Shown: positions 17,127 through 40,320 of the stretch, in pieces | Layout of the letters: each line of letters starts with the position of its first letter | How positions within the stretch are numbered: position 1 is the stretch's first letter | From: an uncultured Eubacteriales bacterium | GTDB lineage: Bacteria > Bacillota > Clostridia > Peptostreptococcales > Anaerovoracaceae | DNA length: 51,872 nt | NCBI GenBank assembly: GCA_902760855.1 | Contig: CACWIO010000001.1 | Span: forward strand, 1 to 51,872 | Direction of reading: 5' to 3' | The notes under the pieces: model-generated | Seen by the model: only the letters and a program-made list of their open reading frames with translations | Databases searched by the model: none | Told to the model about the DNA's origin: nothing | Position numbers and translations under genes: made by a program

Positions 17127-17305
17127 GATGATGCCTTTCTATTATTATTAAATAGTTAGTAGTTATAGTAGATATTGTGGAATATGTGGATAAGTCATGA
17201 ATGATATGAAAAATTCACTTTTTGAGAGAATTTTTTAAGTTAATATCTACCCTTATAAAAAATTAAAAAGATGTTGATAAAACATTTAGCTTCTTTCTTA
17301 AATAA
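17127..17305. other. oriC part 2 (dnaA-dnaN spacer): tandem DnaA boxes, TAG-triplet run and AT-rich stretch
   Basis: TGTGGAATA (17176-17184) abuts the perfect box TGTGGATAA (17185-17193), and TGTTGATAA lies at 17272-17280. TAG TAG TTA TAG TAG (17157-17171) sits 4 nt from the boxes. AT-rich runs lie on both sides. Confidence 0.7.
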
Positions 17306-18646: not shown

Positions 18647-18673
18647 AATTACTCTCCAATGGTTTGTGAACAC

Positions 18674-18800
18674 ATTTTACATAAAATTATCCACATAGGT
18701 AAAGGCTAATTTTTATTGAAATTATAGATAGTAGACTTGGTCAAAAAAATAGTTATCCACATATTGTTGATAAAATTGTTAATAAGTTTTAGGCAACACT
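18674..18800. other. oriC part 1 (dnaA upstream): DnaA-box cluster
   Basis: Perfect TTATCCACA at 18687-18695 and 18753-18761, and TGTTGATAA (1 mismatch, reverse) at 18765-18773, in AT-rich DNA between the divergent dnaA and rpmH. Confidence 0.7.
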
Positions 18801-22659: not shown

Positions 22660-23850
22660 ATGAAAATTAACAGCTTGGTACTTGAAAATTTCAGAAATTA
22701 TAAGAATCTCGAAATTGACTTCGACGAGAGCAGGAACATTCTCGTGGGTGAGAACGCTCAGGGTAAGACCAATCTCGTGGAGGCAATTTATCTTACTGCG
22801 TTCGCGAGATCGTTTAGGACGAATAACGCCGCCGATATGATTTACTTCGGGGAGGCGGCGGGCAGAGTCAGCGCGGATGTGGAGAGTGAAGAGATTGACA
22901 AGAATATAAATATCACTCTGCGCGCTGACGGAAAGAAGATGATACAAAAGGACGGCAAGGCCGTGAAGCGGACTGCCGAACTTTTGAACACCGTCGTCGT
23001 TATTGTATTTACTCCGGACGATTTGCGGATTATCAAGGATAGTCCGGAGAAGAGGCGCGCGTTCATAAACCGCGAGCTTTCGCAGATGAGGCCGCGGTAT
23101 TATGAGCAGCTGCGTCGGTACAACGATGCTTTGAAGGAGAAGAACGCGCTGCTGAAAGGTTTTTTCAATGTAAAGAAAAAAACCTTTACGCGCGTCGACA
23201 ATTTAAGCCTGAACGACGACGCAGGAGCAAATCCATACGACAATTCTCGCAGGTACAACGAGGACCTGCTCGATGTCTACGATCGCCAACTCGCGGATGC
23301 AGGCTACGAACTTCTGCGCTACAGGATGGAGTTCACCGAGCAGCTCTCAGAGGAGGCCGCGGAGATAATGAAGAATATCTCGGACGGCAGAGAAGACCTC
23401 GAAATCAGATACAAGACATCATGCAACTACGTGACCGCAAGTGAAGGCAGGGATCTTCTGTACAGCCAAATCAGACATAACAGAGACAAAGACATATATA
23501 ACGGGAGCGCGTCTCTCGGACCGCACAGGGACGACATCGAATTCTATATAAACGGAAACGATGCCCGGAAGTTCGGCTCGCAGGGCCAGCAGCGTACTAT
23601 CGCGCTCTCGCTGAAATTCGCAGAAATCAGAATCGCCAGGCAAACTCTCGGCGAGGCGCCGGTGCTGCTGCTAGACGACGTTCTCTCAGAGCTGGATCCG
23701 GGCCGCCAGAGATTCCTGATCAGCGAGATAGACGACGTCCAGCTCTTCATCACGTCGGCGGAGCTCGCGGACGAAGTCCGGAGCGCCCTGCGCGGAGGCA
23801 CCCTCTTCCGCATCGAAGACGGCTCCGTCACCCGCGTCGACAAATACTGA
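22660..23850 (+). CDS. recF: DNA replication/repair protein RecF
   Basis: MKINSLVLENFRNYKNLEIDF, Walker A GENAQGKTNL, signature FGSQGQQRT and Walker B LLLDDVLSELD. The start is moved to the ATG at 22660. Confidence 0.9.
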   Translation: MKINSLVLENFRNYKNLEIDFDESRNILVGENAQGKTNLVEAIYLTAFARSFRTNNAADMIYFGEAAGRVSADVESEEIDKNINITLRADGKKMIQKDGKAVKRTAELLNTVVVIVFTPDDLRIIKDSPEKRRAFINRELSQMRPRYYEQLRRYNDALKEKNALLKGFFNVKKKTFTRVDNLSLNDDAGANPYDNSRRYNEDLLDVYDRQLADAGYELLRYRMEFTEQLSEEAAEIMKNISDGREDLEIRYKTSCNYVTASEGRDLLYSQIRHNRDKDIYNGSASLGPHRDDIEFYINGNDARKFGSQGQQRTIALSLKFAEIRIARQTLGEAPVLLLDDVLSELDPGRQRFLISEIDDVQLFITSAELADEVRSALRGGTLFRIEDGSVTRVDKY

Positions 23851-23940
23851 CATCGATTCAAACAATGCGAGACTGATTGTTATCATCGACTTCGCCAATT
23901 GCATTATTCTTTACGCTTTTCATTAAAGGCATTCAGCCGT

Positions 23941-24341
23941 GCAGTTATGGACAATCACCGCAGGCCCATGGATAAACGCATGCACAGAAGAATCGCACAC
24001 AAGATCTTCTGCACACCCGCTTACCCACAGGCCTTTAATAGTTATCCGCATCGGTGATTGCGCACAGCCTGCACAGCTGCTACGACTACCTTCTGAACAA
24101 CAATAACAGCATCAGCATTTTTCTCTTATACTTCTGCCCCTATCTCGTCCCCGTAATAATATTATTTTTCATCATAATATGGCTTTATCGTAGTAGCAGT
24201 GGCGGTGGATTATGTTGATAAGCGACACCAAGCAGATAGGAGCGGTGGATAAGTCGGAGGATAGAAGAACATTTGCTGATTCCATCGCAGCTATCCTTGG
24301 ACTTATCCATGGCTCCTCGCTTATCCACATAATCCATGGCC
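23941..24341. repeat. DnaA-box-rich non-coding element A (inverted partner of 38400-39097)
   Basis: Boxes: TTACCCACA 24021-24029, TTATCCGCA 24042-24050, TGTTGATAA 24213-24221, GGTGGATAA 24244-24252, and perfect TTATCCACA 24321-24329, plus weaker TTATCCATG-type sites. The reverse complement aligns with element B (see findings). Confidence 0.8.
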
Positions 24342-24413
24342 ATTTCACCTATACTGAGGCATGCTCCACAGACTGTGAAGCATATGATTTTGAAGAGGAC
24401 TTTTTTGAGTTTG

Positions 24414-24570
24414 TATGCATATTGTGGAAATTTTTGCTAATATGCATATTTTTCTTTTTAATTTGCTGTTTTCATGCTAATAATAGGTATAATTTAATTG
24501 AAATTAGCAGATAATCGCAGAATCAAATAAAAAAGTATGCATATATGAAAATATCTTGGAAATATGCATA
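24414..24570. promoter_or_regulatory. Four copies of the palindrome TATGCATA flanking a TATAAT element
   Basis: TATGCATA occurs at 24414-24421, 24441-24448, 24536-24543 and 24563-24570, forming two pairs each spaced 27 bp. A TATAAT lies at about 24488-24493 between the pairs, upstream of CDS 24668. Confidence 0.45.
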
Positions 24571-24667
24571 CGATTTAAAAAAACTGCTCTTTAATCTAAA
24601 AGTATTATTAGCGCTGAAAGGGTTTATACATTCTATATAGAACATCAGATTGCGAGGGTAAGCATTT

Positions 24668-25462
24668 ATGATCCATAGAAAAGAACTGGAGAGAATTCGC
24701 TCTATTATGATTGAGAGCAAGAATGATATTGAGTCAGAATTGAGAAACATGCCGGAAGGTGAACTATATTGCATGCGCAAACCAGACAGATGGGTATATT
24801 ATCAGCGCTTTCCAAAGAAGGGCAACAGGAAAAAGGAGAAGCGGGTTGGTATCACGAAGGACAACGAGAAAGTGTTTTCACTTGTGCGCAAAGAGTATCT
24901 GACTAAAGCCATCGCCATAATTGAGAAGGACATAAGGACTATAGACATGGCTATCAAGCATTATGCCAATTATGATGAGGAATCGGTGATGGCAAAGTTT
25001 CTTGAGAAGCATCCGGAGCTGAGAGAAGGCATATATCACGGAAAGCAAAGCGATGAAGAATGGGCAGACAGCTACGATCAGCAACAGAATTTCTATGATG
25101 AGAGCCGCAAACACACATCCGCCATGGGTGTGAAGATGAGATCTAAAAATGAAATATACATTTCTTCGCGACTGGATCATTACTCGATCCCTTACAGATA
25201 TGAGGCGTCTATAGCGCATCCTGATGTGGCCAGAGTTCCAGACTTTACTATCAGGAGACCGAGAGATGGGAAGATCATATATTGGGAACACTTAGGAATA
25301 ACTGACAGCGAAGATTACTTGCTGGGAAATGGAATTAAGTTCAGGGAATACAGAGATGTAGGAATAGTGCCATGGGATAATCTTATTGTTACATATGATG
25401 ATGCAAGTGGTAATATTGATGCAAAGATTATCGAAGCTATGATACAGGGCTGGTTGCTTTAG
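24668..25462 (+). CDS. Hypothetical protein with a C-terminal PD-(D/E)xK-like nuclease fold
   Basis: The C-terminal ~110 aa, SKNEIYISSRLDHYSIPYRYE...VPDFTIRR...IIYWEHLGI, fit an E...D...E-x-(K/L) restriction-endonuclease-like pattern. The N-terminal half is helical. The gene is low in GC. Confidence 0.45.
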   Translation: MIHRKELERIRSIMIESKNDIESELRNMPEGELYCMRKPDRWVYYQRFPKKGNRKKEKRVGITKDNEKVFSLVRKEYLTKAIAIIEKDIRTIDMAIKHYANYDEESVMAKFLEKHPELREGIYHGKQSDEEWADSYDQQQNFYDESRKHTSAMGVKMRSKNEIYISSRLDHYSIPYRYEASIAHPDVARVPDFTIRRPRDGKIIYWEHLGITDSEDYLLGNGIKFREYRDVGIVPWDNLIVTYDDASGNIDAKIIEAMIQGWLL

Positions 25463-25515
25463 GAAAGCACTTGAGGCGGTAGCCATTTTAGGCAATTGAA
25501 AAAAGGAAAAACAAG

Positions 25516-26391
25516 TTGAGCTTAGTGAATGCAATTAAAAGAGAATACGGGGAGGGCGTGGAGATAGCAAGCCGAAGGGCTGTGAGCGGTGGAGACATCA
25601 GCAGCGCTTACGAGCTTGAGCTTTCAAACGGCATTCGTGTTTTCTTGAAGATAAACAGCGCAGCAAGGGCAGATCTCTTTCGCGCAGAGGAAGAGGGCCT
25701 CTCGGCCATGAGGGAAACGAAAAGCGTGTCGGTTCCGCGCGTAATTGCAAGAGGAGTAGATGGAGACGAGGCTTTTTTGCTTATGGAGCAAATTGAAGCA
25801 GGGAGAGCCGGAAAAGAATCGTCCGAGAGACTTGGCAGAGAGCTCGCCTTTATGCATATGGCAGATAGCTCAAAGTTCACTCCCGGCGGCAAATACGGAT
25901 TCACTTCAGATAACTATATTGGGGAGTTTGCCCAGATAAATACACCAAAAGAAAAGTGGGCGGATTTCTTTGCGGAGTGCAGACTGCGCCCGCAGATAGA
26001 CATGGCAGCCTATTACTTCAGTTCAGAAGATATGAGGAAGTTCGACACGCTTCTCGACAAGCTAGACGAGTATTTACCGGAGCCCGAAAGACCTTCGCTT
26101 CTCCATGGAGACCTATGGTCAGGGAACTATCTCATAGATACAAATGGCAAACCCTGGCTAATCGACCCTGCGGCATATGTGGGGCATGCCGAGGCGGATC
26201 TTGCAATGACCGAGCTCTTCGGCGGCTTCGATGAACACTTCTACGGGGCGTACAAAGAAGCAGTCGGCATCGATAAAGGCTATGCGGAGAGAAGAGATCT
26301 CTACAACTTATATAATCTGATAAACCATCTCAATCATTTCGGCACCGGCTATCTCGGAGCTGTAATTAACACCTTGAAAAAATACACTTAA
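25516..26391 (+). CDS. Fructosamine/ketosamine kinase family protein
   Basis: LLHGDLWSGNYL and DPAAYVGHAEADLAMTELFGGF are typical of the fructosamine kinase family. TTG start. Confidence 0.85.
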   Translation: MSLVNAIKREYGEGVEIASRRAVSGGDISSAYELELSNGIRVFLKINSAARADLFRAEEEGLSAMRETKSVSVPRVIARGVDGDEAFLLMEQIEAGRAGKESSERLGRELAFMHMADSSKFTPGGKYGFTSDNYIGEFAQINTPKEKWADFFAECRLRPQIDMAAYYFSSEDMRKFDTLLDKLDEYLPEPERPSLLHGDLWSGNYLIDTNGKPWLIDPAAYVGHAEADLAMTELFGGFDEHFYGAYKEAVGIDKGYAERRDLYNLYNLINHLNHFGTGYLGAVINTLKKYT

Positions 26392-26440
26392 GCGGAGCTA
26401 TTGAGAAGCTGTCTTACGCTGAAGCAGAATTGTCTTTTTC

Positions 26441-26469
26441 TTGACAAAGCGTTTAGAGCCACATAGAAT
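26441..26469 (+). promoter_or_regulatory. Promoter of the adenine-deaminase operon
   Basis: TTGACA (26441-26446), 17 nt, then TAGAAT (26464-26469). Confidence 0.6.
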
Positions 26470-26654
26470 TAAGTCACAATTGAATAGTTTGTAATGTATC
26501 GAAATTCGGATATACTTACAGGACGAGAAACCCGATCGAAATTCGAAGAAACTAAGGACGTGAAGCCTGATCAAAAATCTTCCAAACACAAACGGGACGA
26601 GAAACCTGATTCATTACCAACAAGTTCTTGTCTACGATTGTGTTTTTTGTTTTC
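26470..26654 (+). promoter_or_regulatory. Unclassified structured 5' leader: ~3.5 tandem ~37-nt units plus a terminator-like helix
   Basis: GGACGAGAAACCCGAT 26521-26536, GGACGTGAAGCCTGAT 26556-26571 and GGACGAGAAACCTGAT 26595-26610. ATCGAAATTCG occurs at 26498 and 26535. ACACAAACG (26586-26594) pairs with CGATTGTGT (26635-26643) and is followed by TTTTTGTTTT. Confidence 0.5.
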
Positions 26655-26727
26655 AGTTATTGTTTATGAAAGCGCCAAGTTCAATTACTCTACGCAGATC
26701 CATAACATAATGAAAGGAGGACTTTCT

Positions 26728-28506
26728 ATGGGAAGAACCGTTGAAGAGCTCAAGGAAAGGATTAGAGCGGGAAGTTCGAAGATTCCGTCCGACAAAGTCA
26801 TTCGCGGAGGCATGCTGGTCAACGTGATGACTAAGGAAATCTATCCTGCGGATATCGCAATCTACAAGGATATGATTACCGCTGTCGGGGATGTCGACGA
26901 TTATGTCGATGAGAACACGGAAGTAATCGATGCCGAAGGTATGTATCTGACGCCGGGTCTTATAGACGGGCACATCCACAGCGAATGCAGCAAGATGAGC
27001 ATTACAAGCTATGCGAAGGCCGTCGTTCCGCACGGCACGACAAGCATGATTTCCGGCATGGATGAGTATCTGTCAGTCTCGGACCTTGATGGGCTGAAAG
27101 AGATTCAGGCGGAGGCCGATGCGAGCCCGCTAAAAGTCTTCTGGGGAGCGCCTTATACCTCGCCATACACCGTACCGAAATCCACCATCAACTTTAACAT
27201 GACCAAAGAAGTGCATGAGGTCGTTCAGAAATGGCCGGAGTGCTTCGGCGTCTGGGAGACGGTAACGGAATTCGTGCTGGAAGAAGACGAAGACACTTTG
27301 GGCGCCATGGCGGCTGCCTACAACAATCGCCTGCCAATCTTTGGCTGTGCACCATTTGCCAGAGGCAATCGCCTCAATGGCATCTTATGCGGCGGCGTGC
27401 GTCTCGATCACGAAAGCTACGACCATGAAGAAGTCGTGGAGAAAATGCGTAAAGGCATGCATATGCTGATTCGAGAGTCATGCGTCACTCATTTCTTGGC
27501 GGAAAACATCCGCGCAATCACAGAAGTTAACCCTTATTTATCAAGAAGAACAAGCTTTTGCACCGACGATGTAACTGCGACTGACATAGCTAATCGCGGG
27601 CATTTGGATAATGTCGTGCGTCTGGCGATCAAAGCAGGCATCGAACCTATAACGGCAATTCAGATGGCTTCGATCAACAGCGCCGAGGCGTACCGCATCG
27701 ATCACCTTATCGGATCGATTTGCCCGGGCAGAATCGCGGATATTCTTTTCGTTACTTCACTAGAAGAGTTCGAAGTAAAGCGCGTCATGACCAACGGTAA
27801 GATGGTTGCGGAGAACGGAAAGATCAGCTATGACCTCAGGCCTCCGAAACACAGCGATATTTTCGTAGGCGAGCTTAAGTGCAAAATGACTACAAAAGAG
27901 GATTTTGAATACAAAGTCCCGATCAAGGACGGAGTGGCTAAAGTGCTGTCGATTAAGAGCGAGGGCCCGTTCGTGCGCAAGCGCCTTGATGTAGAACTCG
28001 AGGTTAAAGACGGCATAGTGCAGCCGAGCACGGAGAAGGATTGCATCATGGTGTCCGTACTGGAGAGATTCGGAAAGAACGGCAATCAGTCGCTTGCCTT
28101 CTGCACCGGCTGGGGACTGCACGGCGCAATGGCGTCGACCAACGCACCGGATGACAACGACCTCATCGTTATGGGATCCAGTGCCGAAGACATGTCGGTC
28201 GCGGCCAACCACCTGATTAAAATGGGCGGCGGCCAGGTTGTAGTGCAGGACGGAGAGATACTCGAGTTCCTGCCGCTTCCTATCGGTGGCATTGTAAGCG
28301 ATCTCGAGCCTGAGGAAATGGTTGCAGCAGAGAAGAGAATTGATGACGCAGCCAGGAAGATCGGTTCAGAACTTCCGGATCCGATGATGTACATGTTCTT
28401 CCTACCTATAACAGCAGTTCCGGACTACGCCATTACAGACGCGGGGCCGGTTGATTATCTGAATTTATGCACCTATGATCCGGTACTGGAGTTGAAAGAG
28501 AGGTAA
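26728..28506 (+). CDS. Adenine deaminase-family amidohydrolase, paralogue 1
   Basis: 592 aa from the ATG at 26728 (RBS AAAGGAGG). It has GLIDGHIHSECS (HxH metal motif) and the same overall length and architecture as the next gene. Confidence 0.75.
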   Translation: MGRTVEELKERIRAGSSKIPSDKVIRGGMLVNVMTKEIYPADIAIYKDMITAVGDVDDYVDENTEVIDAEGMYLTPGLIDGHIHSECSKMSITSYAKAVVPHGTTSMISGMDEYLSVSDLDGLKEIQAEADASPLKVFWGAPYTSPYTVPKSTINFNMTKEVHEVVQKWPECFGVWETVTEFVLEEDEDTLGAMAAAYNNRLPIFGCAPFARGNRLNGILCGGVRLDHESYDHEEVVEKMRKGMHMLIRESCVTHFLAENIRAITEVNPYLSRRTSFCTDDVTATDIANRGHLDNVVRLAIKAGIEPITAIQMASINSAEAYRIDHLIGSICPGRIADILFVTSLEEFEVKRVMTNGKMVAENGKISYDLRPPKHSDIFVGELKCKMTTKEDFEYKVPIKDGVAKVLSIKSEGPFVRKRLDVELEVKDGIVQPSTEKDCIMVSVLERFGKNGNQSLAFCTGWGLHGAMASTNAPDDNDLIVMGSSAEDMSVAANHLIKMGGGQVVVQDGEILEFLPLPIGGIVSDLEPEEMVAAEKRIDDAARKIGSELPDPMMYMFFLPITAVPDYAITDAGPVDYLNLCTYDPVLELKER

Positions 28507-28511
28507 GAGGG

Positions 28512-30254
28512 ATGGAAAAAGATAAACTGAAAAAACTAATCGATGTAGCTGCCGGACGCGAGAAGGCAGATGTCCTGATCAAAAACTGCAAGGTAATAAA
28601 TGTATTTAGCGGAAAGATTCAGGACGGAGAAATTGCCATCGTAGGAGATATGATAGCCGGAATCGGAGCGCCGGGTGACTACGATGCACACGAAGTTGTC
28701 GATGCAGAGGGCAAATACGCATCGCCGGGATTCATCGACAGCCATATTCATATCGAGTCCTCATATGTGTCTCCGGAGGAAATCGGAAGACTGCTCGTGC
28801 CGCACGGAGGCACGACGATAATTGCCGATCCGCATGAAATAGTCAATGTCTGCGGCTTCACGGGACTTCGATACATGATCGAAGCTGCCAAGAACACAAA
28901 GCTCGACATACGCTACATGCTCCCAAGCTGTGTGCCTGCAACTCCGTTTGAGCATGCAGGGGCTGTAATTGACGCAGAGAAGATGAAGGAAGTAATCGAC
29001 TCCGATGAGATACTTGGACTCGGAGAGTTCATGAATTTCCCGGGCGTGATTTCCGCGGCTGACGAAGTGCTGGATAAGATCGTCCTCGCACAGGAGCACG
29101 GTAAGATTATCGACGGACATTGCCCGTCTGTAGAGGGCTTGGGCTTAAACGCCTATGCTGCAGCGAGGATAAAAGGCGACCACGAGTGCTCGACTCTCGA
29201 GGAGATGAACGACCGCCTGGATAGAGGTCTATATGTGCTATTGAGACAGGGCTCGGCTTGCCACAACCTGCGCTCGCTGATACCGGGAGTCACAAGCGAG
29301 AACAGCCGCAGGCTGCTGCTTTGCTCGGACGACCGTCAGCCCAAGACGATGATTGAAGAAGGCCACCTCGACAATCACCTGCGTATCATGGGCGAGTACA
29401 ATCTGGATCCTGTAATGTGCATTCGCATGGCGACCCTGAACGCCGCAGAGTGCTTCGGCCTGGACGATCTCGGAGCCATAGCCCCGGGCTACCGCGCCAA
29501 CATCGTACTGATGGATGACCTAGAAAGCTTCCGAGTAGCCAAAGTCTGGATAGATGGTGAGCTTTGCGCAGAAGACGGGGAGTATTTGCCGGAGTTTAAG
29601 AAAACTGACATCACGCCGGTGAGATCGAGCGTTCATCTGAAGGACTTCTCCGAGGGCAAACTCAAGATGCATCTTAGCTCAGACAAGGTGCACGTCATTC
29701 AGATCATGCCGGGCGGCGTAGTTACTGCGAAGGTCGTAGAGAATGTAAAGGTCGGAGAGGACGGAGACTTCGTACGCGATCCTGATGTAGATATTGTTAA
29801 GGTTGCCGTTGTAGAGCGCCACCAGGAGACGGGTAATGTCGCACTCGGTCTGCTTAAGGGCTACGGAATCAAGAGCGGAGCTGTCGGACTTTCGATAGCG
29901 CACGACTCTCACAATCTCGTTGTAGTTGGCGTCGACGACGGAGAGATTGCCGCCGCTGTCAGAGCACTTAAAGAGATGGAAGGTGGCATGGTACTTATAA
30001 AGGATGGACAGGTGATAGAGAGCATGCCGCTTCCGATTGCCGGACTGATGAGCGATCAGAGCGGTGAATGGATCTCGGACAAACTCACGGCACTTCATGA
30101 GAAAGCCTATCATGAGCTGGGTGTCAACGAGGATGTCGAGCCTATCATGACGCTGTGCTTCATGTCCCTTGCGGTTATACCTGAAATAAAGCTGACCGAC
30201 ATGGGATTGTTCGATATCATGAAGTTTGATTTTATTCCGCTGGAAGCTAATTAG
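28512..30254 (+). CDS. ade: Adenine deaminase
   Basis: 580 aa with the canonical PGFIDSHIHIESS motif, ADPHE, and the C-terminal adenine deaminase domain. Confidence 0.85.
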   Translation: MEKDKLKKLIDVAAGREKADVLIKNCKVINVFSGKIQDGEIAIVGDMIAGIGAPGDYDAHEVVDAEGKYASPGFIDSHIHIESSYVSPEEIGRLLVPHGGTTIIADPHEIVNVCGFTGLRYMIEAAKNTKLDIRYMLPSCVPATPFEHAGAVIDAEKMKEVIDSDEILGLGEFMNFPGVISAADEVLDKIVLAQEHGKIIDGHCPSVEGLGLNAYAAARIKGDHECSTLEEMNDRLDRGLYVLLRQGSACHNLRSLIPGVTSENSRRLLLCSDDRQPKTMIEEGHLDNHLRIMGEYNLDPVMCIRMATLNAAECFGLDDLGAIAPGYRANIVLMDDLESFRVAKVWIDGELCAEDGEYLPEFKKTDITPVRSSVHLKDFSEGKLKMHLSSDKVHVIQIMPGGVVTAKVVENVKVGEDGDFVRDPDVDIVKVAVVERHQETGNVALGLLKGYGIKSGAVGLSIAHDSHNLVVVGVDDGEIAAAVRALKEMEGGMVLIKDGQVIESMPLPIAGLMSDQSGEWISDKLTALHEKAYHELGVNEDVEPIMTLCFMSLAVIPEIKLTDMGLFDIMKFDFIPLEAN

Positions 30255-30267
30255 AGAGGAGGAAAGT

Positions 30268-31839
30268 ATGAACGAAAGGAAAATTGTACCGTTTTTTCAA
30301 AGAGGCGATATCGGAGGTTTGACTTACCTTATTACCAACAATATCGTAAACTACCTAATCGTTATTTCGACGCTGATTTACGTATGTGAGTGGCCGGAAG
30401 ATATGGTGTATGGCTACGTCATCCCGGCTATGTCAATCGGACTTCTGGCAGGATGCCTTTATTACGCATGGATGGGCTACAAGCTTTCGAAAGAGACAGG
30501 CCGCACTGATGTAACGGCGCTGCCGTCCGGCGTATCCACACCGGCGATGTTCGTCATACTTTACGGTGTAATCACGCCGCTTCACTACGCACTGCACGAC
30601 CCTCAGCTCGAGTGGGCTGCTGCGACTGCAGCTTGCTTCATCGGCGGATTTGTAGAATTCCTCGGCGGATTCATAGGCCCTTGGATGAAGAGGAAGATTC
30701 CTCGCGCTGCACTCCTCGGTACCGTAGCCGGTATCGGATTTATCTGGATGGCAACTCAGGGCGTATTCGATATACTCGGAGACCCGATGATAGGCCTTCC
30801 TGTTCTGCTGGTAGCTGCAATCGGACTCTTTGGAGGATACCTCTTCCCTAAGAAGATTCCGCCACTGGTAGTGGCAATCGTCGGAGGAATTGTTTACGCA
30901 CTGGCTCTTGGACGTACAACGCCTGATTTCTCAAGCGTAGGATTCTATTTCCCGAACCCTGTTAACAGCATACAGTCGCTGATCAACGGCTTCGCAGTCG
31001 TAGTGCCTTACCTGACAATTATCATTCCGGTAGAGATTTACAACTTCATCGAGACAATGGATAATGTCGAGGCCGCGAACGCCGCAGGCGACGAATACAA
31101 TGTACGCGAAGCTCAGTTTGCCGATGGTATTTGCACGATGATCTCCGCTCTCTTTGGCGGTGTAGTTCCGAATACGGTATGGCTCGGACACGCAGGACTC
31201 AAGAAATCCGAAGCCGGCATAGGCTATTCTGTGGTTTCCGGAATCGTTTTGGGATTTGCCGGAATATTCGGTTTGTTCTCACTGCTCAACTCTTTAGTTC
31301 CGCCGGCAATCTGCGCAATTACATTCCTGTGGTGCGCTGTTGTCATGGTCGCACAGGCATTCAAGGACAACGAGCTCAAGCACTATGCCGCGGTCGGAGT
31401 TGCCATGGTGCCATCCATTGCCGACTACCTGTATACCCAGGTTACGGGTGCGGTCAGCGCAGCCAGCGACTATGCAATTGCAGTTGAAGTTCAGGCAATG
31501 GGACTTTCCGATTACAGCGCGGACTTCGTGCAGTATCTTAAGGATGCGGGCGTTATGTGGAACGGCGTTCCGGCAGTTAAATCCGGTGCGATTGTTGTCG
31601 GAATCCTGCTCGGAACTATGGTGACCTTCATAATCGATCAGAAATTGGACAAGGTCGGCATTACGGCATTCATCGGAGCAGTTCTCAGCTGCTTTGGATT
31701 CATTCACAGCGCTGCTCTTGGATTCTATCCTATCTCTCCGTTTACTATCGGATATGTAATATGCGGAGTGCTGGCATTTGTACTTCATCTCGGAAGAGAC
31801 AGCTGGTTCAAAGCACCGGACGACTTCGATTACGTATAG
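30268..31839 (+). CDS. Putative nucleobase permease (distant NCS2/AzgA-like)
   Basis: 523-aa polytopic membrane protein from the ATG at 30268 (RBS GGAGGAAAG). Segments NFIETMDNVEAANAAG and ADGICTMISALFGG parallel AzgA/PbuO-type motifs. It follows the deaminases. Confidence 0.6.
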   Translation: MNERKIVPFFQRGDIGGLTYLITNNIVNYLIVISTLIYVCEWPEDMVYGYVIPAMSIGLLAGCLYYAWMGYKLSKETGRTDVTALPSGVSTPAMFVILYGVITPLHYALHDPQLEWAAATAACFIGGFVEFLGGFIGPWMKRKIPRAALLGTVAGIGFIWMATQGVFDILGDPMIGLPVLLVAAIGLFGGYLFPKKIPPLVVAIVGGIVYALALGRTTPDFSSVGFYFPNPVNSIQSLINGFAVVVPYLTIIIPVEIYNFIETMDNVEAANAAGDEYNVREAQFADGICTMISALFGGVVPNTVWLGHAGLKKSEAGIGYSVVSGIVLGFAGIFGLFSLLNSLVPPAICAITFLWCAVVMVAQAFKDNELKHYAAVGVAMVPSIADYLYTQVTGAVSAASDYAIAVEVQAMGLSDYSADFVQYLKDAGVMWNGVPAVKSGAIVVGILLGTMVTFIIDQKLDKVGITAFIGAVLSCFGFIHSAALGFYPISPFTIGYVICGVLAFVLHLGRDSWFKAPDDFDYV

Positions 31840-31878
31840 CAGATACGGGATTGAATTATAGCAACTTGATTTAAACAC

Positions 31879-31936
31879 TGCCTCTTGTGCAAGACATGAC
31901 ACTCGGAATGTCCTGCCAAGAGGCATTTTCCATTTT
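31879..31936 (+). terminator. Intrinsic terminator of the deaminase-permease operon
   Basis: TGCCTCTTG (31879-31887) pairs with CAAGAGGCA (31917-25), with an inner GACAT/ATGTC helix, followed by TTTTCCATTTT. Confidence 0.7.
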
Positions 31937-31945
31937 ATATCCAAA

Positions 31946-31987
31946 CTATCCAAAACGCTTGACAATTGGATAGAAAATGGATAATAT
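31946..31987 (+). promoter_or_regulatory. Promoter with an overlapping palindromic operator for the HTH-Uma2 gene
   Basis: CTATCCAA (31946-31953), N12, then TTGGATAG (31966-31973). The spacer contains the -35 TTGACA (31959-31964), followed by 17 nt and TAATAT (31982-31987). Confidence 0.5.
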
Positions 31988-32050
31988 TATTTTGCAAAGA
32001 TTATAGTTGCTTTTCAACGATCAGACGGGACTAGAAGAGGAGGGCGAGAC

Positions 32051-32959
32051 ATGAAGATTGAAGATTTGATAGAAAGAAAAAAAGAGCTCGGATATACCAA
32101 TGAAATGATCTCTGAGAAATCGGGAGTGCCTCTCAGCACGGTCAACAAAATCTTCGGGGGCTTCACAGAAAGGCCGAGATATAACACCCTCCAAAGTTTA
32201 GAGTGTGTACTTTTTCCGGAGCTACACAGTCCTAAAGAAGCCGCGCTTTATAAAGATATAGTTGAAAATCTTGCGTTGGACTGGGGCAGTAGAGCAAGCG
32301 GTGGACTGGCGCTGGATGAGTATTCTGCTGAGACACCAAAGAAAGTTACTCAAGATCATTATGAAAAAGTGATTTCGTGGAAGAAACCCGGAGAATTCAC
32401 GGTGGAGGATTGGCTGAGTCTGCCGGGATGGATGAATATGGAGCTGATAGACGGAGTACTTATAGATAGGAATACTCCGACAACGAAGCATCAATTCATA
32501 GTCACCTACCTGTGCACAGCGCTTAACAACGCTATAGAAGCCAGCAAGAAAAAGAATAAAGATTGCATAGTCCTTTCTGCGCCGACAAGCGTGCAACCGG
32601 ATAAGGACGACGATAAAAACGGTTTCATTCCGGACGTTCTCATGGTTTGCGATAAAGAGAAATACAGAGGAACCGATATAATACTGGGGCCTCCGGATTT
32701 TATAACAGAGGTACTTTCTCCTTCTACCGAGAAGTATGATCGCATAGTTAAGCTTAATAAGTATTGGATGGCCGGAGTTCGTGAGTACTGGATTATAAAT
32801 ATAGAGGAAAACGAAATCTATGTATATCATTTCGATAAAGGAGCTTCGTTTAAGACATACAGCTTCGAAGATGTGATACCACTGGGCATATCAGGAGGTG
32901 AAATCACTATAGATTTCAATGCCATCTATACCCGTCTCAAATCCTTCTTTGGAGAATAG
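32051..32959 (+). CDS. XRE-type HTH domain fused to a Uma2-family (DUF820) PD-(D/E)xK endonuclease domain
   Basis: The N-terminus has ELGYTNEMISEKSGVPLSTVNKIFGG (HTH_3-like). The C-terminus has ELIDGVL...PDVLMVC...PDFITEVLSPST...YWMAGVREYWII, typical of Uma2. Confidence 0.75.
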   Translation: MKIEDLIERKKELGYTNEMISEKSGVPLSTVNKIFGGFTERPRYNTLQSLECVLFPELHSPKEAALYKDIVENLALDWGSRASGGLALDEYSAETPKKVTQDHYEKVISWKKPGEFTVEDWLSLPGWMNMELIDGVLIDRNTPTTKHQFIVTYLCTALNNAIEASKKKNKDCIVLSAPTSVQPDKDDDKNGFIPDVLMVCDKEKYRGTDIILGPPDFITEVLSPSTEKYDRIVKLNKYWMAGVREYWIINIEENEIYVYHFDKGASFKTYSFEDVIPLGISGGEITIDFNAIYTRLKSFFGE

Positions 32960-32961
32960 AT

Positions 32962-35196
<2,235 letters not shown>

Positions 35197-35217
35197 GAGA
35201 TAAGAAGGAATTAAGAA

Positions 35218-37758
35218 ATGGCTAATTTGCTAGACAACAGCAACATAATCGAGCACGAAATATACGATGAAATGAAAACCTCGTATATCGACTACGCCAT
35301 GAGCGTAATCGTCGGCCGTGCTCTTCCGGATGTCAGAGACGGACTCAAGCCGGTTCACAGGAGAATACTCTACGGCATGCACTCCCTAGGCATCACCCCG
35401 GACAAACCACACAAAAAATCCGCCCGTATCGTCGGAGAAGTAATGGGTAAATACCACCCGCACGGAGACTCCTCCATCTATGATTCGATGGTTAAGATGG
35501 CGCAGGATTTCTCGACGAGATATCCGCTCGTTGACGGACACGGCAACTTCGGTTCCGTGGACGGAGACGGCGCAGCGGCTTCGCGTTATACAGAAGCTCG
35601 CATGTCACCGTTCTCACTTCAGATGGTCCGCGACATCGAAAAGGACACCGTTGACTTCATCGACAATTACGACGGAGAAGAGCAGGAGCCTGTAGTACTC
35701 CCATCGAGAGTGCCCAACCTCCTGATAAACGGATCTAACGGAATTGCCGTCGGAATGGCTACATCAATTCCGCCTCACAACCTCGGCGAGACCATAGACG
35801 CCTGCGTTAAGAAGATCGACGAGCCGGATGCGACTTCCGCAGACCTTGCCAAGATCATCAAAGGACCGGACTTCCCGACGGGCGCGGTCATACTCGGTAA
35901 GAGTGCAGCGAAAGAGGCCTACCTCACAGGGCAGGGCAAGGTAAATGTCCGCTCGGTCTGCGAGATCAGCGAGGGCAAAGGCGGCAAGATGCAGATAGTT
36001 GTCTCCGAGATTCCGTACCAGGTCAACAAGGCAAGGCTCATCGAGTCGATGGCGGACCTCGTAAGGGATAAGAAGATCGAAGGCATCAGCGCAATTCGAG
36101 ACGAGTCGAACCGCGAGGGAACGAGAATCGTAATCGAGCTCAAGAGAGACTCGAACCCGAACGTAATTCTCAACAGACTGTATAAACACACCGCTCTTCA
36201 GACATCGTTCAGCATGATCATGCTGGCACTTGTCGACGGAGAGCCAAAGATACTCAATCTCCAGCAGATTATCGAGGAGTATCTCAAGCACCAGAAGACT
36301 GTAGTCACAAGGCGTACGAGATTTGACCTTGCTAAGGCAGAGGCCAGAGCTCATATCTTAGAAGGACTCATCATAGCGCTGGATAATATCGACGAGGTCA
36401 TCGCAACCATACGCTCGGCATACAATGACGCCAAGGAAAAACTGATGGTACGCTTCGGACTTTCCGAGATTCAGGCGCAGGCCATACTCGACATGAGGCT
36501 TGCCAAACTGCAAGGCCTCGAGCGCGAGAAGATTCAGGCGGAGTACGACGAGCTCCAGAAGAAGATTGCCTACTACAAGAGCCTGCTCGCAGATGACCAC
36601 AAACTCATGGGAGTTATCAAGGACGAGCTGCTCGAGATCAAAGAGAAGTGGGCAGATCCTCGCCGCACCAAGATCGTAGCGGACGAGGGCGAGCTCGATG
36701 AAGAGGCGCTCATCGACGAAGAGGATGTAGCGATTACGCTGACTCACCTCGGATATGTCAAGAGGGTGCCGGCAGATACATATAAGGCGCAGCGCCGCGG
36801 CGGCAAGGGCATAGTCGGACTGACCACGCGCGAGAGCGACTTCGTCAGAGACCTGATTATCACGAGCACGCACGACTACCTCATGTTCTTCACAGACATG
36901 GGCCGCGTCTACAAGATCAAGGCTTACGAGATTCCGGAAGCTTCCAGGACTGCCAAGGGCACGCCTGTTATCAACTTCCTCAATCTCAACTCGACAGAGC
37001 GCGTAACTGCGATGATTCCTATCCGCGAGTTCAGCCAGGACGAGTCGCTTGTCATGGTAACCCGCATGGGAACTATCAAGAAGACGCCGCTTAGCGAGTT
37101 CGATACAAACCGCAAGACCGGACTGATTGCCATCACACTGAAGGAAGGCGACAAGCTCATCTCCGTTGCACAGGCCACGGGAGACGATAACGTGCTCGTA
37201 GTCACCAAGCTCGGTAAGGCGATTGCCTTCTCCGAGAAGGACGTAAGACCTATGGGACGCAATGCCGGCGGCGTAAGAGCCATACTGCTCGAAAAGGATG
37301 ACGAGGTAGTATCCATGGAGCTTGACTCCGAGCAGACCAGGAAGATGCTCGTAATCACTGAGAACGGATTCGGTAAGAGGACGCCTCTCACTGAGTACAG
37401 GCTGCAGACAAGAGGCGGCAAGGGCGTAGCGACTTACGATAAGACCAAGTTCGGAAAGACCGGACATCTGGTCGGCGCTACCATCGTCAAGGACGAGGAC
37501 GAGGTCATGGTCATCAACTCCAACGGAGTCATCATCAGGATCAGAGCGAACGAAGTATCGACTTCGGGACGTACGACTCAGGGCGTTAAGATCATGAAGG
37601 TCGAAAAAGACAACCGCATTGTGTCGTTTGCCAAGGTCATCGATGAAGAGGATGCCGATAACGGCAAGTCCGCAAAGGGCGGTAAAGCCGCGAAGGACGA
37701 GAATCCGAACGTCGGAGCCGACGGAAGCGAACAACTGACCCTGACCACCGAGGAATAG
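35218..37758 (+). CDS. gyrA: DNA gyrase subunit A
   Basis: 846 aa with [23 protein letters not shown], the active-site region [11 protein letters not shown], and a C-terminal beta-pinwheel with an acidic/basic tail. Confidence 0.97.
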
Positions 37759-37776
37759 ATTGTGGGGACTTCAATA

Positions 37777-38313
37777 ATGAAGAGAAAACTGACAATAGTT
37801 CTTGTAATCATCATGACGCTGACTTTTACTGCCTGTTCAATATTTAAAAGTGAATGGGATCCGCGCAAACACTCATTAGGCGAAATCAGCTTTGATGTCC
37901 CGGAAGGATATAATGCAATACCGAGCTTCGACAGTGTTGTGATTAAGAAAGAAGATGAAAGCTTTCGAATTATTGTCGAGAAGGTAACCGGCGAATCCTG
38001 GACTGAAGTAGAAAGCGGACAGAAGTCTATAGAGGATGCGCGACGAGAACACTATGACTCTATTGCTTCTTATTGGGGCTCCGAACCAGTAGAAATTGCA
38101 GGATGCGAAGGAGTTATTCGCAGAGATTACGGAGAGGATGGGCAACTATACGATGATTTCGCAATATTTATAACAGACAATGCGGTCTATTCCGTTCTCT
38201 TCCTCAATGAGGTATATGATGACGAGGAAGAAATGCCACAGGAAGTATTTCCTCTAACAGATGAAGAAGACGCCCTCTTTGACACCTTTATTGCATCAAT
38301 TACAAAGGAATAA
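37777..38313 (+). CDS. Lipoprotein, function unknown (one copy of a domain duplicated in 39241-40320)
   Basis: MKRKLTIVLVIIMTLTFTAC lipobox. It shares ISFDVPEGY and a C-terminal LTDEEDALFDTFIASI pattern with the 39241 protein. Confidence 0.6.
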   Translation: MKRKLTIVLVIIMTLTFTACSIFKSEWDPRKHSLGEISFDVPEGYNAIPSFDSVVIKKEDESFRIIVEKVTGESWTEVESGQKSIEDARREHYDSIASYWGSEPVEIAGCEGVIRRDYGEDGQLYDDFAIFITDNAVYSVLFLNEVYDDEEEMPQEVFPLTDEEDALFDTFIASITKE

Positions 38314-38358
38314 CTAAGTTTAAAGGCCAGTAAAAAAGGCCTCAGAGATTAAACAAAG

Positions 38359-38389
38359 CTCAAGCTTCAAAAAAGCTTGGGCTTTTCTC
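38359..38389 (+). terminator. Intrinsic terminator after the gyrA-lipoprotein unit
   Basis: CTCAAGCTT (38359-38367), loop caaaa, CCCAAGCTT complement (38373-38381), then CTTTTCTC. Confidence 0.6.
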
Positions 38390-38399
38390 ATCTTCCAAG

Positions 38400-39097
38400 G
38401 GCCATGGATTATGTGGATAAGCGAAAGGCCATGGATAAGTCCAAGGATAGTTGCAAAAGCGTGCAAACAACTATCCTCCGACTTACCCACCACCTCTTTT
38501 CTTGGGGTCGCTTATCAACATAATCCACCGCCCCTACGAAGGCGATTATAAATAATAATAGTCATATACTTCTCCGAGGGAGAAAATGTCCATTTGAGAA
38601 GTATAAATCTCCTGAATTTCAACAGAATATACTTCTCATTTGGATTTTTTCTTATTTGAGAAGTATATTCGTCCATCGTTTTTTCCGGATGTACTTCTTA
38701 TTTGAAAAATTTTTCATTTAAGAAGTATATTTCTTCAAAGTCAGGCAGCGGATACCCTCAGATATACTTCTATTTTTTGAAAAATATCATTAGAGAAGTA
38801 TATCGCTTCAAATTTTTTCAAAATTATACTTCCCAAATCAGAAAAAATTTCATTTAAGAAGTATAAGTGTTCATAAGCTGGTACTCATAAAATGGACACG
38901 CAGCTACCGAGTTTAGCACTATAGTTTCTGGCTATTATTGCTATTCATAAGGCCGATCGAGTAGTCGTAGCAGCTGTGGAGGCTGTGCGCAATCACCCAT
39001 TCAAGAATAAAGCAGGCCTGTGGGTAAGAAGGTGGGCGGCGCTTATTCTGCCGTCCACGGGCTTATCCATAGGCCTGCGGTGATAGGGCATAACTCC
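38400..39097. repeat. DnaA-box-rich non-coding element B (inverted partner of 23941-24341) with an expanded AT-rich core
   Basis: Boxes: perfect TGTGGATAA 38412-38420, CATGGATAA 38430-38438, TTACCCACC 38483-38491, TTATCAACA 38512-38520, TGTGGGTAA 39019-39027 and TTATCCATA 39063-39071. The flanks align with the reverse complement of element A. Confidence 0.8.
38565..38865. repeat. Array of five tandem palindromic units (ten TATACTTCT/AGAAGTATA half-sites)
   Basis: Forward half-sites start at 38565, 38628, 38690, 38763 and 38825; reverse half-sites start at 38596, 38658, 38720, 38793 and 38856. Arms within a unit are 30-31 bp apart (start to start), and the unit period is 62-63 bp with one 73-bp step. 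Confidence 0.85.
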
Positions 39098-39240
39098 ATA
39101 GCTGTTGAAATAGGGTAAAGTAATGCGGGCGTATATTTGCGGGAATTGTTAAAAAATGCGCAAATTTAATGCTTTATAGAGGGGTTCATGTTAATATGGT
39201 TTGAGACTTATAAGTCTAAACTGAAAGGAGAATTTATATT

Positions 39241-40320
39241 ATGAAGAGTAAGTTTGTGAAGGCGGGGCTCCTGCTGATGATGTTTGTTATTATGACAGCG
39301 CTTAGCGCATGCGGCGGAGGCGCATCGATTTCCGAGACGACCCTGGATAACGAGGGTACAAATACGGAGGCTAATTGCGGTATAAGAGAAATAGTGTTTG
39401 CCATTCCGGATGGATGGAAAGTAGTTAATTCAGAGGAAGACCACTCTGTAGACATAGCAAAGGATGGGTCCAAACACAGCATATTTATCTATACAACAGA
39501 TCAGGAAGATCTGAGCAATTCTGAAGGCGACATCTCAAAGATGACTATTGACGAGTTTTTCGACAAATACTGCAAGGTAAGTGAAAAAGCCGTAAAAGAG
39601 ACGGAAATGGAAGCAAGTACAACAACCATATGCGGCTCGGAAGCTTATTACTGCAAGAGAAAAGCTGATAACGGATTTATCTCAGCAGATATCTGCTGGC
39701 TATATAACGACGTGATATACAGAATGACGCTCAATAATTATGAAAATTATGATGAAAATGGGCCGAAACCGGACGCCGTAGCTTACACTGATGAAGACAT
39801 TGCAGCGTTTGAATACCTGATTGCCAGCATCAAGTCCGGAGACGGAAATGCACTGCAAAAGGAAGCGTTTAAGATAGACTCCGTTGCAGGATTGTCTTTT
39901 GATGCACCGGAAGGATATGAAGTGAACTTGAGCGCAATAGACTGGGTTGAATTTGCTAATCCTGACAACAATACAGTACTTCAAATAATGACGACTAATG
40001 CGGACACACTTGACAACCACACTAAAGGAGACGGGAGCAAATATGCTAGCGTAGAGGATCTTTACAAAGATATGATCTGGGACGATATGACAGACGTTTC
40101 AGTCGATGGCATCACGGCTAAGAAAAGTGTCTATGATGAGGACGGAAAGATTGTAAACGCAGAGCTAAAACTCTTCTATGATGATACTTACTACGAGATA
40201 GCGATGATGTGCGATGACACCTGGACGGAAGATGGATCGCTCAATCCTGATTCTAAAGGATTAAGCGAATCTGATGTTGCGGCGTTTGATGCATTCTGCA
40301 AGTCCTTAAAGAAGAAATAA
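39241..40320 (+). CDS. Lipoprotein with two copies of the 37777-type domain, function unknown
   Basis: The lipobox is LSAC GGG. The motifs VFAIPDGWKV and LSFDAPEGYEV each open a repeat ending in ...DIAAFEYLIASIK and ...DVAAFDAFCKSLK. Confidence 0.6.
   Translation: MKSKFVKAGLLLMMFVIMTALSACGGGASISETTLDNEGTNTEANCGIREIVFAIPDGWKVVNSEEDHSVDIAKDGSKHSIFIYTTDQEDLSNSEGDISKMTIDEFFDKYCKVSEKAVKETEMEASTTTICGSEAYYCKRKADNGFISADICWLYNDVIYRMTLNNYENYDENGPKPDAVAYTDEDIAAFEYLIASIKSGDGNALQKEAFKIDSVAGLSFDAPEGYEVNLSAIDWVEFANPDNNTVLQIMTTNADTLDNHTKGDGSKYASVEDLYKDMIWDDMTDVSVDGITAKKSVYDEDGKIVNAELKLFYDDTYYEIAMMCDDTWTEDGSLNPDSKGLSESDVAAFDAFCKSLKKK

Follow-up and report, generated by a model that had tools for sequence, protein, structure and literature searches.

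Why should a bacterial chromosome carry, some kilobases from its replication origin, further blocks of non-coding DNA crowded with binding sites for the initiator protein DnaA? The question is raised by the 51,872-nucleotide stretch analysed here (the window; contig CACWIO010000001.1, assembly GCA_902760855.1), which comes from an uncultured Eubacteriales bacterium of the family Anaerovoracaceae. Two non-coding elements, called A and B, lie in inverted orientation on either side of a 14-kb block that includes gyrB and gyrA. A first-pass annotation had placed the canonical dnaA-linked origin (oriC) at 17.1-18.8 kb, apart from both, and this is confirmed. We propose as the answer that A and B represent one rare non-coding repeat, about 0.41-0.71 kb long and restricted to a Mogibacterium-like (Anaerovoracaceae) rumen lineage, of which they are two diverged copies. 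The copies are built of long hairpins, one arm of which carries the unwinding syntax of a chromosomal origin, complete in A and degenerate in B. On balance, and counting this description as part of the claim, we lean towards the view that the copies would act as pseudo-origins or DnaA sinks, binding DnaA and opening locally.

Two diverged copies of a dispersed repeat

A computed repeat search of the window aligns inverted A (23934-24341) with B (38397-39104) in six colinear blocks: 24287-24344 with 38397-38454 (58 nt, 91% identity), 24244-24264 with 38471-38491 (95%), 24187-24240 with 38493-38546 (81%), 24050-24089 with 38961-39000 (40 nt, 95%), 24011-24034 with 39014-39037 (88%) and 23934-23993 with 39045-39104 (78%). 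The longest perfect identity between the two is 26 nt. On running each element against the window with blastn, the two halves gave E = 1e-31 and 6e-24, and no third copy was found there. The inverted similarity claimed in the first-pass annotation is thus borne out, and its hand counts of 38/41, 29/30 and 32/39 came out identical on recomputation. Its other descriptive points also hold: both elements occupy gaps of more than 800 bp that are free of open reading frames (ORFs), 817 bp around A (23851-24667) and 927 bp around B (38314-39240); perfect DnaA boxes begin at 24321 and 38412; and gyrB (33202-35196) and gyrA (35218-37758) lie between the elements. The possibility that one copy is an assembly artefact can be set aside, because a second, nearly identical assembly (ENA scaffold_351, with 1 and 4 mismatches over 14.9 and 20.5 kb) holds both elements, arranged as in the window.

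The pair is not peculiar to this locus. Two further copies, at L080 9165-9680 (L080a) and L083 645-1110 (L-numbers denote loci in other genomes), lie upstream of homologs of orf264, the gene that follows A in the window. These are the closest homologs of the window gene (85-86% identical), and their neighbourhood consists of a radical-SAM gene, a gap of about 0.9 kb homologous to A, orf264 and a DNA-alkylation-repair gene. A partial copy, L080b (L080 18872-19023), comprises one hairpin domain (domain III, described below) and its AT-rich flank, and lies 11 bp past the stop codon of orf268, an orf264 paralog with 46% identity. Further partial copies are present in L090 and in the spurious ORFs P0123 and P0124. 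Copies have been located in four intergenic contexts (recF|orf264, orf183|orf359, radical-SAM gene|orf264 and flavodoxin gene|orf268), and only L080 and L083 share a conserved position.

Homology between the window and L080 begins about 25 nt before the first module of A and ends at the orf264 stop codon. These sharp boundaries indicate that the element, the promoter and orf264 form a unit of about 1.6 kb. In neither the window nor L080 is the unit flanked by a target-site duplication or direct repeat, and there are no clear terminal inverted repeats, the ends CAGCCGTGCAGTTATG ... CATAATCCATGGCC being only loosely complementary.

Over 251 module positions, A is 94.0% identical to L080a, which is from another species, and 85.7% identical to B. 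A and B are therefore old paralogous copies and not a duplication made at this locus; these identities rule out a recent local inverted duplication. The adjacent orf264 genes of the window and L080 share 83% nucleotide identity (0.89, 0.92 and 0.68 at codon positions 1, 2 and 3). Since the module identity exceeds all of these, the modules are under stronger constraint than the orf264 protein, and the spacers between them diverge freely among copies. The modules are under purifying selection. The first-pass annotation had presented the pair as a locus-specific structure bracketing gyrBA, which does not fit with A being nearer to the L080 and L083 copies than to B, nor with the copies between other genes. 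Given that the A-type unit recurs elsewhere and that B stands alone, the inverted orientation and the 14-kb interval would be by-products of two separate placements, and the bracket around gyrBA looks incidental.

The distribution of the repeat is narrow. In a recF-anchored scan of species-representative genomes, the window groups with rumen and gut metagenome-assembled genomes labelled Mogibacterium sp. or Anaerovoracaceae, with RecF 68-88% identical. Among the approximately 45 such relatives that have recF-gyrB-gyrA, and whose synteny the first-pass annotation had proposed to compare, none has a detectable homologue of A or B after recF or gyrA; nor is there a DnaA-box cluster at either position, such clusters being found only beside dnaA. 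A search of 78 recF-anchored loci with A and B, using blastn and nhmmer, returned nothing except weak nhmmer matches to dnaA-dnaN spacers, and comparison with the dnaA-flanking spacers of the window itself gave only a motif-level match of about 17 nt. In public data the family has one JGI metagenome match (identical to L083). No DNA match was found in plasmids, and the viral contigs searched gave no match to a 25-mer of module M5 (see below) or to the pattern of a box pair plus trios. A search with a spurious ORF translated from the element found only four clusters, which again shows that the family is rare in public data. It is worth adding that a 100-residue ORF at 24212-24514, called as a gene in another assembly, is simply a translation of domain III and the promoter region, and that the few 'homologs' it has in databases arise from other copies of the element through the same artefact.

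Hairpins and origin-type unwinding syntax

In the orientation of A, a copy consists of domain I, an imperfect hairpin of about 155 nt made up of modules M1, M2 and M3; an AT-rich, variable spacer; and domain III, a hairpin of about 135 nt made up of M4 and M5. A (+) is a complete copy, delimited by its inverted match to B and by the homologous copies upstream of the orf264 homologs in L080 and L083. Its domain I (23934-24089, from the RNAalifold consensus) contains M1 at 23934-23992, M2 at 24009-24034 and M3 at 24053-24089. The spacer (24090-24185) is 34% GC and varies between copies, and domain III (24187-24341, from inverted repeats and the consensus fold) has M4 at 24187-24264, a loop, and M5 at 24291-24341. 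B (-) is a solo copy without orf264, recognised by the inverted match and by homology to the other copies, with hairpins corresponding to domain III (38397-38546) and domain I (38958-39104). Its spacer contains an array (38564-38866, 28% GC) of five palindromic units, ATATACTTCT-N19-23-AGAAGTATAT, repeated with a period of about 62 bp. The array accounts for ten half-sites (16 half-site matches occur in the window, against 3.8 expected), and A keeps a single relic half-site, AGAAGTATAA, at 24126-24135 (-). Tandem Repeats Finder reports nothing in the array, because the units are palindromic and diverged.

Consensus folds of 4-5 sequences give 45 pairs for domain I (94% paired, 4 compensatory pairs; reached by 1 of 500 shuffles) and 47 pairs for domain III (99.6% paired, 3 compensatory pairs; 4 of 500 shuffles). 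With this number of sequences, the evidence that compensatory changes keep the hairpins is suggestive, though not conclusive. The two strands fold about equally well, the opposite strand as well or better, and no Rfam family matches the elements at gathering or relaxed thresholds. The symmetry is therefore read as a property of the DNA. The best-conserved block is M3, with 36 of 37 positions identical between A and B, and it contains no canonical DnaA box.

With at most one mismatch allowed, 28 DnaA boxes are found in the window, where 9.6 +/- 3.3 are expected and no shuffle reached 28. They fall into four groups: the dnaN-dnaA spacer, the dnaA-rpmH spacer, A (5 boxes) and B (4 boxes). A and B are thus significant DnaA-box clusters outside oriC. 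In A the box scan places box-like sites in domain I at 23967-23975 (-) and 24021-24029 (+), and boxes in domain III at 24244-24252 (-), 24301-24309 (+), 24321-24329 (+, perfect) and 24330-24338 (+). In B the perfect box is at 38412-38420, in domain III, and domain I has boxes at 39019-39027 and 39063-39071. Box columns are 78% invariant, compared with 65% of other ungapped columns (p = 0.035). The earlier proposal of selection on the boxes rather than recent duplication is therefore upheld as regards selection and old age (modules 94% identical, third codon positions 68%), but conservation is not confined to the boxes.

The weak matches of the domain III profile to the dnaA-dnaN spacers of relatives led us to a direct comparison with oriC, using the spacers of ten relatives side by side. 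The basal unwinding system (BUS), as published, has a DnaA box that departs from TTATCCACA at no more than 2 positions and usually a second, tandem box that departs at no more than 4. At least three consecutive NAN trios follow, the first of them no more than 16 bp (typically 13) from the better box (PMC8287927). The DnaA-trio consensus is 3'-GAT-5', and beyond the trios lies AT-rich, easily melted DNA (PMC8287927). In B. subtilis the DnaD-recognition (DRE) strand is 5'-CTACTATTACTTCTACTA-3' (PMC10201434); the CTA strand of the element matches it, CTA being the complement of the 3'-GAT-5' trios.

The genuine origin of the window, between dnaA and dnaN (17127-17305, -), reads TTATCCACA TATTCCACA ATAT CTA CTA TAA CTA CTA and then AT-rich DNA, and that of L036 reads TTATCCACA TAATCCACA TACA CTA CTA CAA CTA CTA, again followed by AT-rich DNA. 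The module of A lies in the M4 arm (24185-24221, -) and reads TTATCAACA (24221-24213) TAATCCACC (24212-24204) GCCA (24203-24200) CTG CTA CTA CGA TAA (24199-24185), after which the DNA is 75-83% AT. L080a and L083 have TTATCAACA TAATCCACA GCCT CTA CTA CTA, and L080b has TTATCAACA TAATCCACC GCCA CTG CTA CTA, in each case followed by AT-rich DNA. The degenerate module of B (38512-38570, +) has TTATCAACA (38512-38520) TAATCCACC (38521-38529) GCCC CTA CGA AGG CGA TTA before its AT-rich DNA.

Set against the published description, the two boxes of the pair carry 1 and 2 mismatches in A, B and L080b, and 1 and 1 in L080a and L083. The distance from the better box to the trios is 13 bp in every copy (the 9-bp second box plus GCCA, GCCC or GCCT), and the 30-40 nt past the trios are 68-83% AT. 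The trios run CTG CTA CTA in A and CTA three times in L080a and L083, with at least three also in L080b; interruptions are found in genuine origins of the clade too (CTA CTA CAA CTA CTA). A, L080a, L080b and L083 therefore agree with the published description in full, and B falls short in its trios, having CTA and then CGA AGG. In order, spacing and sequence of parts, the syntax of the element cannot be distinguished from that of the dnaA-dnaN origins of relatives. A syntax scan of 1.47 Mb on both strands gave 45 matches, all of them dnaA-dnaN origins or copies of the element, so that the match is not a chance property of AT-rich intergenic DNA. The location is not that of a single dnaA-linked origin, A and B lying 5 and 20 kb away, after recF and after gyrA-orf183. 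Across the spacer, M3 presents a degenerate mirror unit (24058-24089, +), TTGCGCACA GCCTGCACA G CTG CTA CGA CTA C, whose trios point into the spacer and whose boxes, with 3 and 4 mismatches, are outside the published limits.

The likeness to the BUS (Richardson et al. 2016/2019; Pelliciari et al. 2021, PMC8287927; DRE PMC10201434) extends to the order, spacing and sequence of the parts, which are TTATCNACA and TAATCCACN, a 4-nt GC-rich spacer, CTA repeats and AT-rich DNA. The differences are that the element does not stand beside dnaA, has several copies per genome, lies inside long palindromes, is faced by a degenerate trio unit and is sometimes linked to a nuclease-like gene, and that its unwinding is predicted from sequence. 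The first-pass annotation had missed the long-hairpin build, the lack of a canonical DnaA box in M3, the array of about 300 bp in B, the DnaA-trios and the link of A to the neighbouring gene.

orf264 and the surrounding region

The gene that follows A, orf264 (24668-25462, +), encodes 264 residues with a predicted PD-(D/E)xK-type nuclease fold at the C-terminus. Its family is clade-specific, with 461 homologs, which are annotated only as 'hypothetical protein [Mogibacterium sp.]' and occur in many different intergenic contexts. Pfam, NCBIfam and PHROG give no family assignment, and a PDB sequence search gave only weak matches to RecU. In the AlphaFold2 model (mean pLDDT 85) the C-terminal domain resembles VRR-NUC, the endonuclease domain of R2, Hjc, XisH, homing endonucleases of phages, DUF2726 and TnsA. 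orf264 also matches the C-terminus of the candidate defence protein PDC-S68 (PADLOC, E = 2e-26) and domains of plasmid helicase/AAA proteins. The invariant residues include E162, D192 and E207-H208. The putative triad (E162, D192, E207-H-L) is atypical, with no lysine at the usual place.

The AT-rich promoter/operator region of orf264 (24345-24667, +) is absent from B. It contains two units TGCATATT-N15-AATATGCA, at 24416-24446 and 24538-24568, and all the orf264-family promoters examined have the same layout, two units each consisting of a half-site, 15-20 AT-rich nt and a half-site (window, L083, L086, L087, L090, L091, L092, L096 and L098). The half-site varies with the homolog (ATGCAT, TGTACA, TATACAT or ATTCAT), which suggests that the N-terminal domain of orf264 may recognise its own operator. 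The units of the B array resemble these operator units in layout. Distant homologs of orf264 (67-70% identity) lack the origin-like element. A different, GC-rich non-coding motif is found 250-400 bp upstream of them, ...AAACCCGCA.GG.C.GCTGTA..GCG.G...GCAGACCCCGCGAG.CA..GGAG.CGAGCGG. (L087 ~9400-9560, L092 ~2470-2560, L096 ~400-470 and L098 ~1540-1660), and no Rfam family matches it. Four metagenome contigs (L081, L088, L089 and L094) break off within the operator-bearing promoter region, 170-230 bp upstream of an orf264 homolog, which suggests sequence that is repeated or hard to assemble.

The gene order of the region, from Pfam matches, is dnaN (-, 16023-17126), dnaA (-, 17306-18673), rpmH-rnpA-yidC-jag (+), two small ORFs (-), recF (+, 22660-23850), A, orf264, fructosamine kinase, two adenine deaminases, orf537, an HTH-Uma2 gene, gyrB, gyrA, the lipoprotein-like orf183, B, orf359 (a paralog of orf183) and dtd. 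This departs from the usual order rpmH|dnaA-dnaN-recF-gyrBA, in that dnaA-dnaN is divergent from rpmH-rnpA-yidC-jag and recF-gyrBA follows jag. The dnaN-dnaA segment (16000-18700) is 32-37% GC, against about 50% elsewhere in the window. The low GC is genuine for this lineage and no mark of a chimera, because the same genes encode proteins 90-91% identical in the closest relative (L002); with ENA scaffold_351, this rules out an assembly artefact or chimera. Between 16 and 41 kb no recombinase gene is encoded. No tRNA or integration-site signals were found.

Several features recur in the clade. recF alone is flipped in L006, L008, L009, L018, L020, L024, L025, L031, L034 and L046, and a DUF4854-orf201-recF block in L045. 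The recF-gyrB spacer is an insertion hot spot, ranging from 0.25 to about 7 kb (window 23851-33201, L003, L004, L007, L016, L017, L022, L023, L027, L028, L030, L036 and L048), and the HTH-Uma2 gene (PADLOC PDC-S03, E = 3e-37) recurs just upstream of gyrB. Within the hot spot, window 26494-30254 encodes adjacent adenine-deaminase paralogs of 670 and 580 residues, about 29% identical, and then a 537-residue ORF without a family match. In L002 the interval from gyrA to an orf264 homolog of 47% identity (15870-16290) has two tandem arrays (about 30 bp x6 and 60 bp x4), unrelated in sequence to A or B. The lipoprotein-like genes beside B (37762-38313 and 39241-40320) are paralogs, orf183 matching the C-terminal part of orf359-type proteins; L036 and L037 have a single orf359-type gene directly after gyrA.

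What the copies may do

We hypothesise that DnaA would bind the box pairs in duplex DNA and could extend from there onto the trios, so that in A-type copies the AT-rich spacer is destabilised, with the degenerate mirror unit M3 facing the domain III module across it. The copies would then be DnaA sinks and easily opened sites near oriC. A is part of the unit of about 1.6 kb (element, operator-bearing promoter and nuclease-like gene) that recurs between unrelated genes, and B stands alone, its spacer enlarged by the five palindromic units. That DnaA binds the copies, that the spacer opens and that initiation is affected in any way is inferred. The earlier suggestion of DnaA titration, or of a relic or auxiliary origin, is thereby made concrete by the box clusters and by one arm with oriC unwinding syntax (its trios degenerate in B), although a conserved position is absent. 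A bolder form of this idea, possible but doubtful in our view, is a family of portable pseudo-origins, in which a complete DnaA-dependent unwinding module in conserved hairpins spreads with a small PD-(D/E)xK nuclease gene, and the copies either fire as extra origins or are opened by host DnaA for nuclease-mediated propagation. We know of no description of either, and a literature search gave none of dispersed repeats carrying DnaA-trios.

Several points weigh against the sink and pseudo-origin interpretation. A titration site of benefit to the host would be expected at conserved positions, and the nearest 45 or so genomes lack the element there; the family is also rare (the single metagenome match and the four clusters mentioned above). 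M3 and several stretches between boxes are as invariant as the boxes and are not DnaA boxes, so something else must also constrain the sequence. B has only one canonical trio, and this copy, at least, may be unable to open DNA. A pure DnaA sink does not explain why copies repeatedly adjoin a nuclease-like gene. Finally, with only 4-5 distinct copies, the selection and covariation statistics are thin.

The element could instead be the cis part of a selfish unit, with orf264 as a free-standing homing-type or structure-specific PD-(D/E)xK endonuclease that recognises or cuts the hairpins; the DnaA syntax would recruit host DnaA, the spacer would open and the hairpins extrude, and B and L080b would be non-autonomous derivatives. 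The sharp boundaries of the unit (about 25 nt before M1 to the orf264 stop codon), its different neighbours in the window and in L080/L083, the second L080 copy abutting the paralog orf268, and the many intergenic contexts of the orf264 family all point this way. So do the compensatory changes in the hairpins, the B array units laid out like orf264-family operators, and the predicted fold, common to homing endonucleases, Holliday-junction resolvases, TnsA and a candidate defence protein. We nevertheless regard it as unlikely, because target-site duplications and clear terminal inverted repeats are absent, homologs at 67-70% identity do without the element, viral and plasmid collections gave no matches, the triad is atypical (E162, D192, E207-H-L, no lysine at the usual place) and no pair of empty and filled sites was found. 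To our knowledge there is also no precedent for a mobile element that uses DnaA-trios. That A or B, or both, are active auxiliary origins, firing with or instead of the dnaA-linked oriC, is less likely again. In A the box pair, spacer, trios and AT-rich module are indeed complete and compare with those of genuine origins in the clade, further boxes lie on either side, and the mirror trio unit would suit bidirectional loading; both copies are within 20 kb or so of oriC, where extra firing would not disturb replichore balance; and two origins have a precedent in P. aeruginosa and are predicted in Halomonadaceae (bioRxiv 10.1101/2025.08.05.668638). However, the cumulative GC-skew minimum falls at 13-18.5 kb and nothing in the curve marks 24 or 38.5 kb (the resolution is too poor for sites 5-20 kb off), the trios of B are degenerate, the L080 copies stand in ordinary metabolic gene neighbourhoods, relatives manage without the element, and dispersed firing origins would be expected to be selected against.

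Decay would explain the degenerate trios and disrupted spacer of B, the internal deletion in domain III of L083, the retention of only half of M5 in L090 and the rarity of the family. It is nonetheless improbable that the copies are functionless relics of origin DNA or of an extinct element, given modules that are more conserved across species than the non-synonymous positions of the neighbouring gene while spacers are free to diverge, and compensatory changes that preserve the hairpins. Slightly less probable still is a large structured non-coding RNA, or a structured leader of orf264, in which the DnaA-like motifs are incidental. An RNA would fit the low folding energy of three hairpin domains in every copy, the seven compensatory pairs and the several G-U pairs that domain III shows on the orf264 strand, but Rfam gives no family at either threshold, the opposite strand folds as well or better, promoter and terminator scans, themselves uninformative, gave nothing convincing, and B and L080b have no downstream gene in the right orientation. 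In addition, the stems are conserved in primary sequence beyond the needs of pairing, and the oriC syntax match is too specific to be incidental. We give least credence to the suggestion, made in the first-pass annotation, that the 14-kb gyrBA block can invert, or once inverted, between a locus-specific duplicated pair. Inverted repeats do flank the block, and the origin region of the clade has undergone several inversions (recF alone, or DUF4854-orf201-recF). Against this, the block 24342-38399 has a single orientation in two assemblies, the longest perfect identity is only 26 nt, copies on other contigs resemble A more closely than B does, and no recombinase gene is nearby; relatives with a flipped recF have no flanking inverted repeats, and the inverted block would set gyrBA against the direction of replication.

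Among known systems, the copies can be compared with DnaA-box clusters outside oriC, such as the six DnaA-box clusters (DBCs) of B. subtilis (Okumura et al. 2012, PMC3245932) and datA/DARS of E. coli (PMC5742627). As with the DBCs, the element in the window is origin-proximal, and titration or modulation of DnaA is plausible. Those clusters have fixed, conserved positions, form no repeat family and have no palindromic hairpins, and the element differs in each respect. We know of no DnaA-trios or AT-rich unwinding region in them. More than one origin-like DnaA-box region near dnaA is likewise found where a chromosome has a second oriC (oriC1/oriC2 of P. aeruginosa; in Halomonadaceae by prediction, bioRxiv 10.1101/2025.08.05.668638) or where the origin is bipartite (H. 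pylori, PMC3479198; B. subtilis). These regions are syntenic, family-conserved and not homologous to each other, whereas A and B are mutually homologous, absent from close relatives and in unrelated contexts. As a repeat, the element resembles MITEs (miniature transposable elements with inverted repeats), REP/BIME and pneumococcal BOX (PMC10969869, PMC3184786) in being intergenic, modular, hairpin-forming and lineage-restricted, with variable internal modules and both solo and gene-linked copies. It is much longer than REP, has no terminal inverted repeats or target duplications, and its copy number looks low. No MITE, REP, BIME or BOX family with origin unwinding syntax is known to us. DnaA boxes in the stem of a DNA hairpin were reportedly described by Masai, Nomura and Arai in 1990 for the A site of the 'ABC primosome', said to be an E. 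coli plasmid system of about 60 nt. The A site shares its hairpin-stem boxes with the element and has no box pair with trios; no evidence points to a single-stranded stage for the element.

The module of a box pair plus DnaA-trios is regarded as the hallmark of a chromosome's one origin, and tools that predict origins depend on it. If it occurs in repeated, movable, hairpin-embedded copies, such predictions would give several candidates per genome. The window would then also offer a natural near-origin set, A with intact trios, B with degenerate ones and oriC 5-20 kb away, in which firing can be compared with a DnaA-bound pseudo-origin, and there may be a mobile or selfish element that makes use of the host initiator, which would be a new way for mobile DNA to interact with replication control. 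Should the copies be no more than DnaA sinks, they would carry the concept of DnaA-box clusters beyond Bacillus into a clade of anaerobic gut bacteria, with an evolutionary origin that is unusual.

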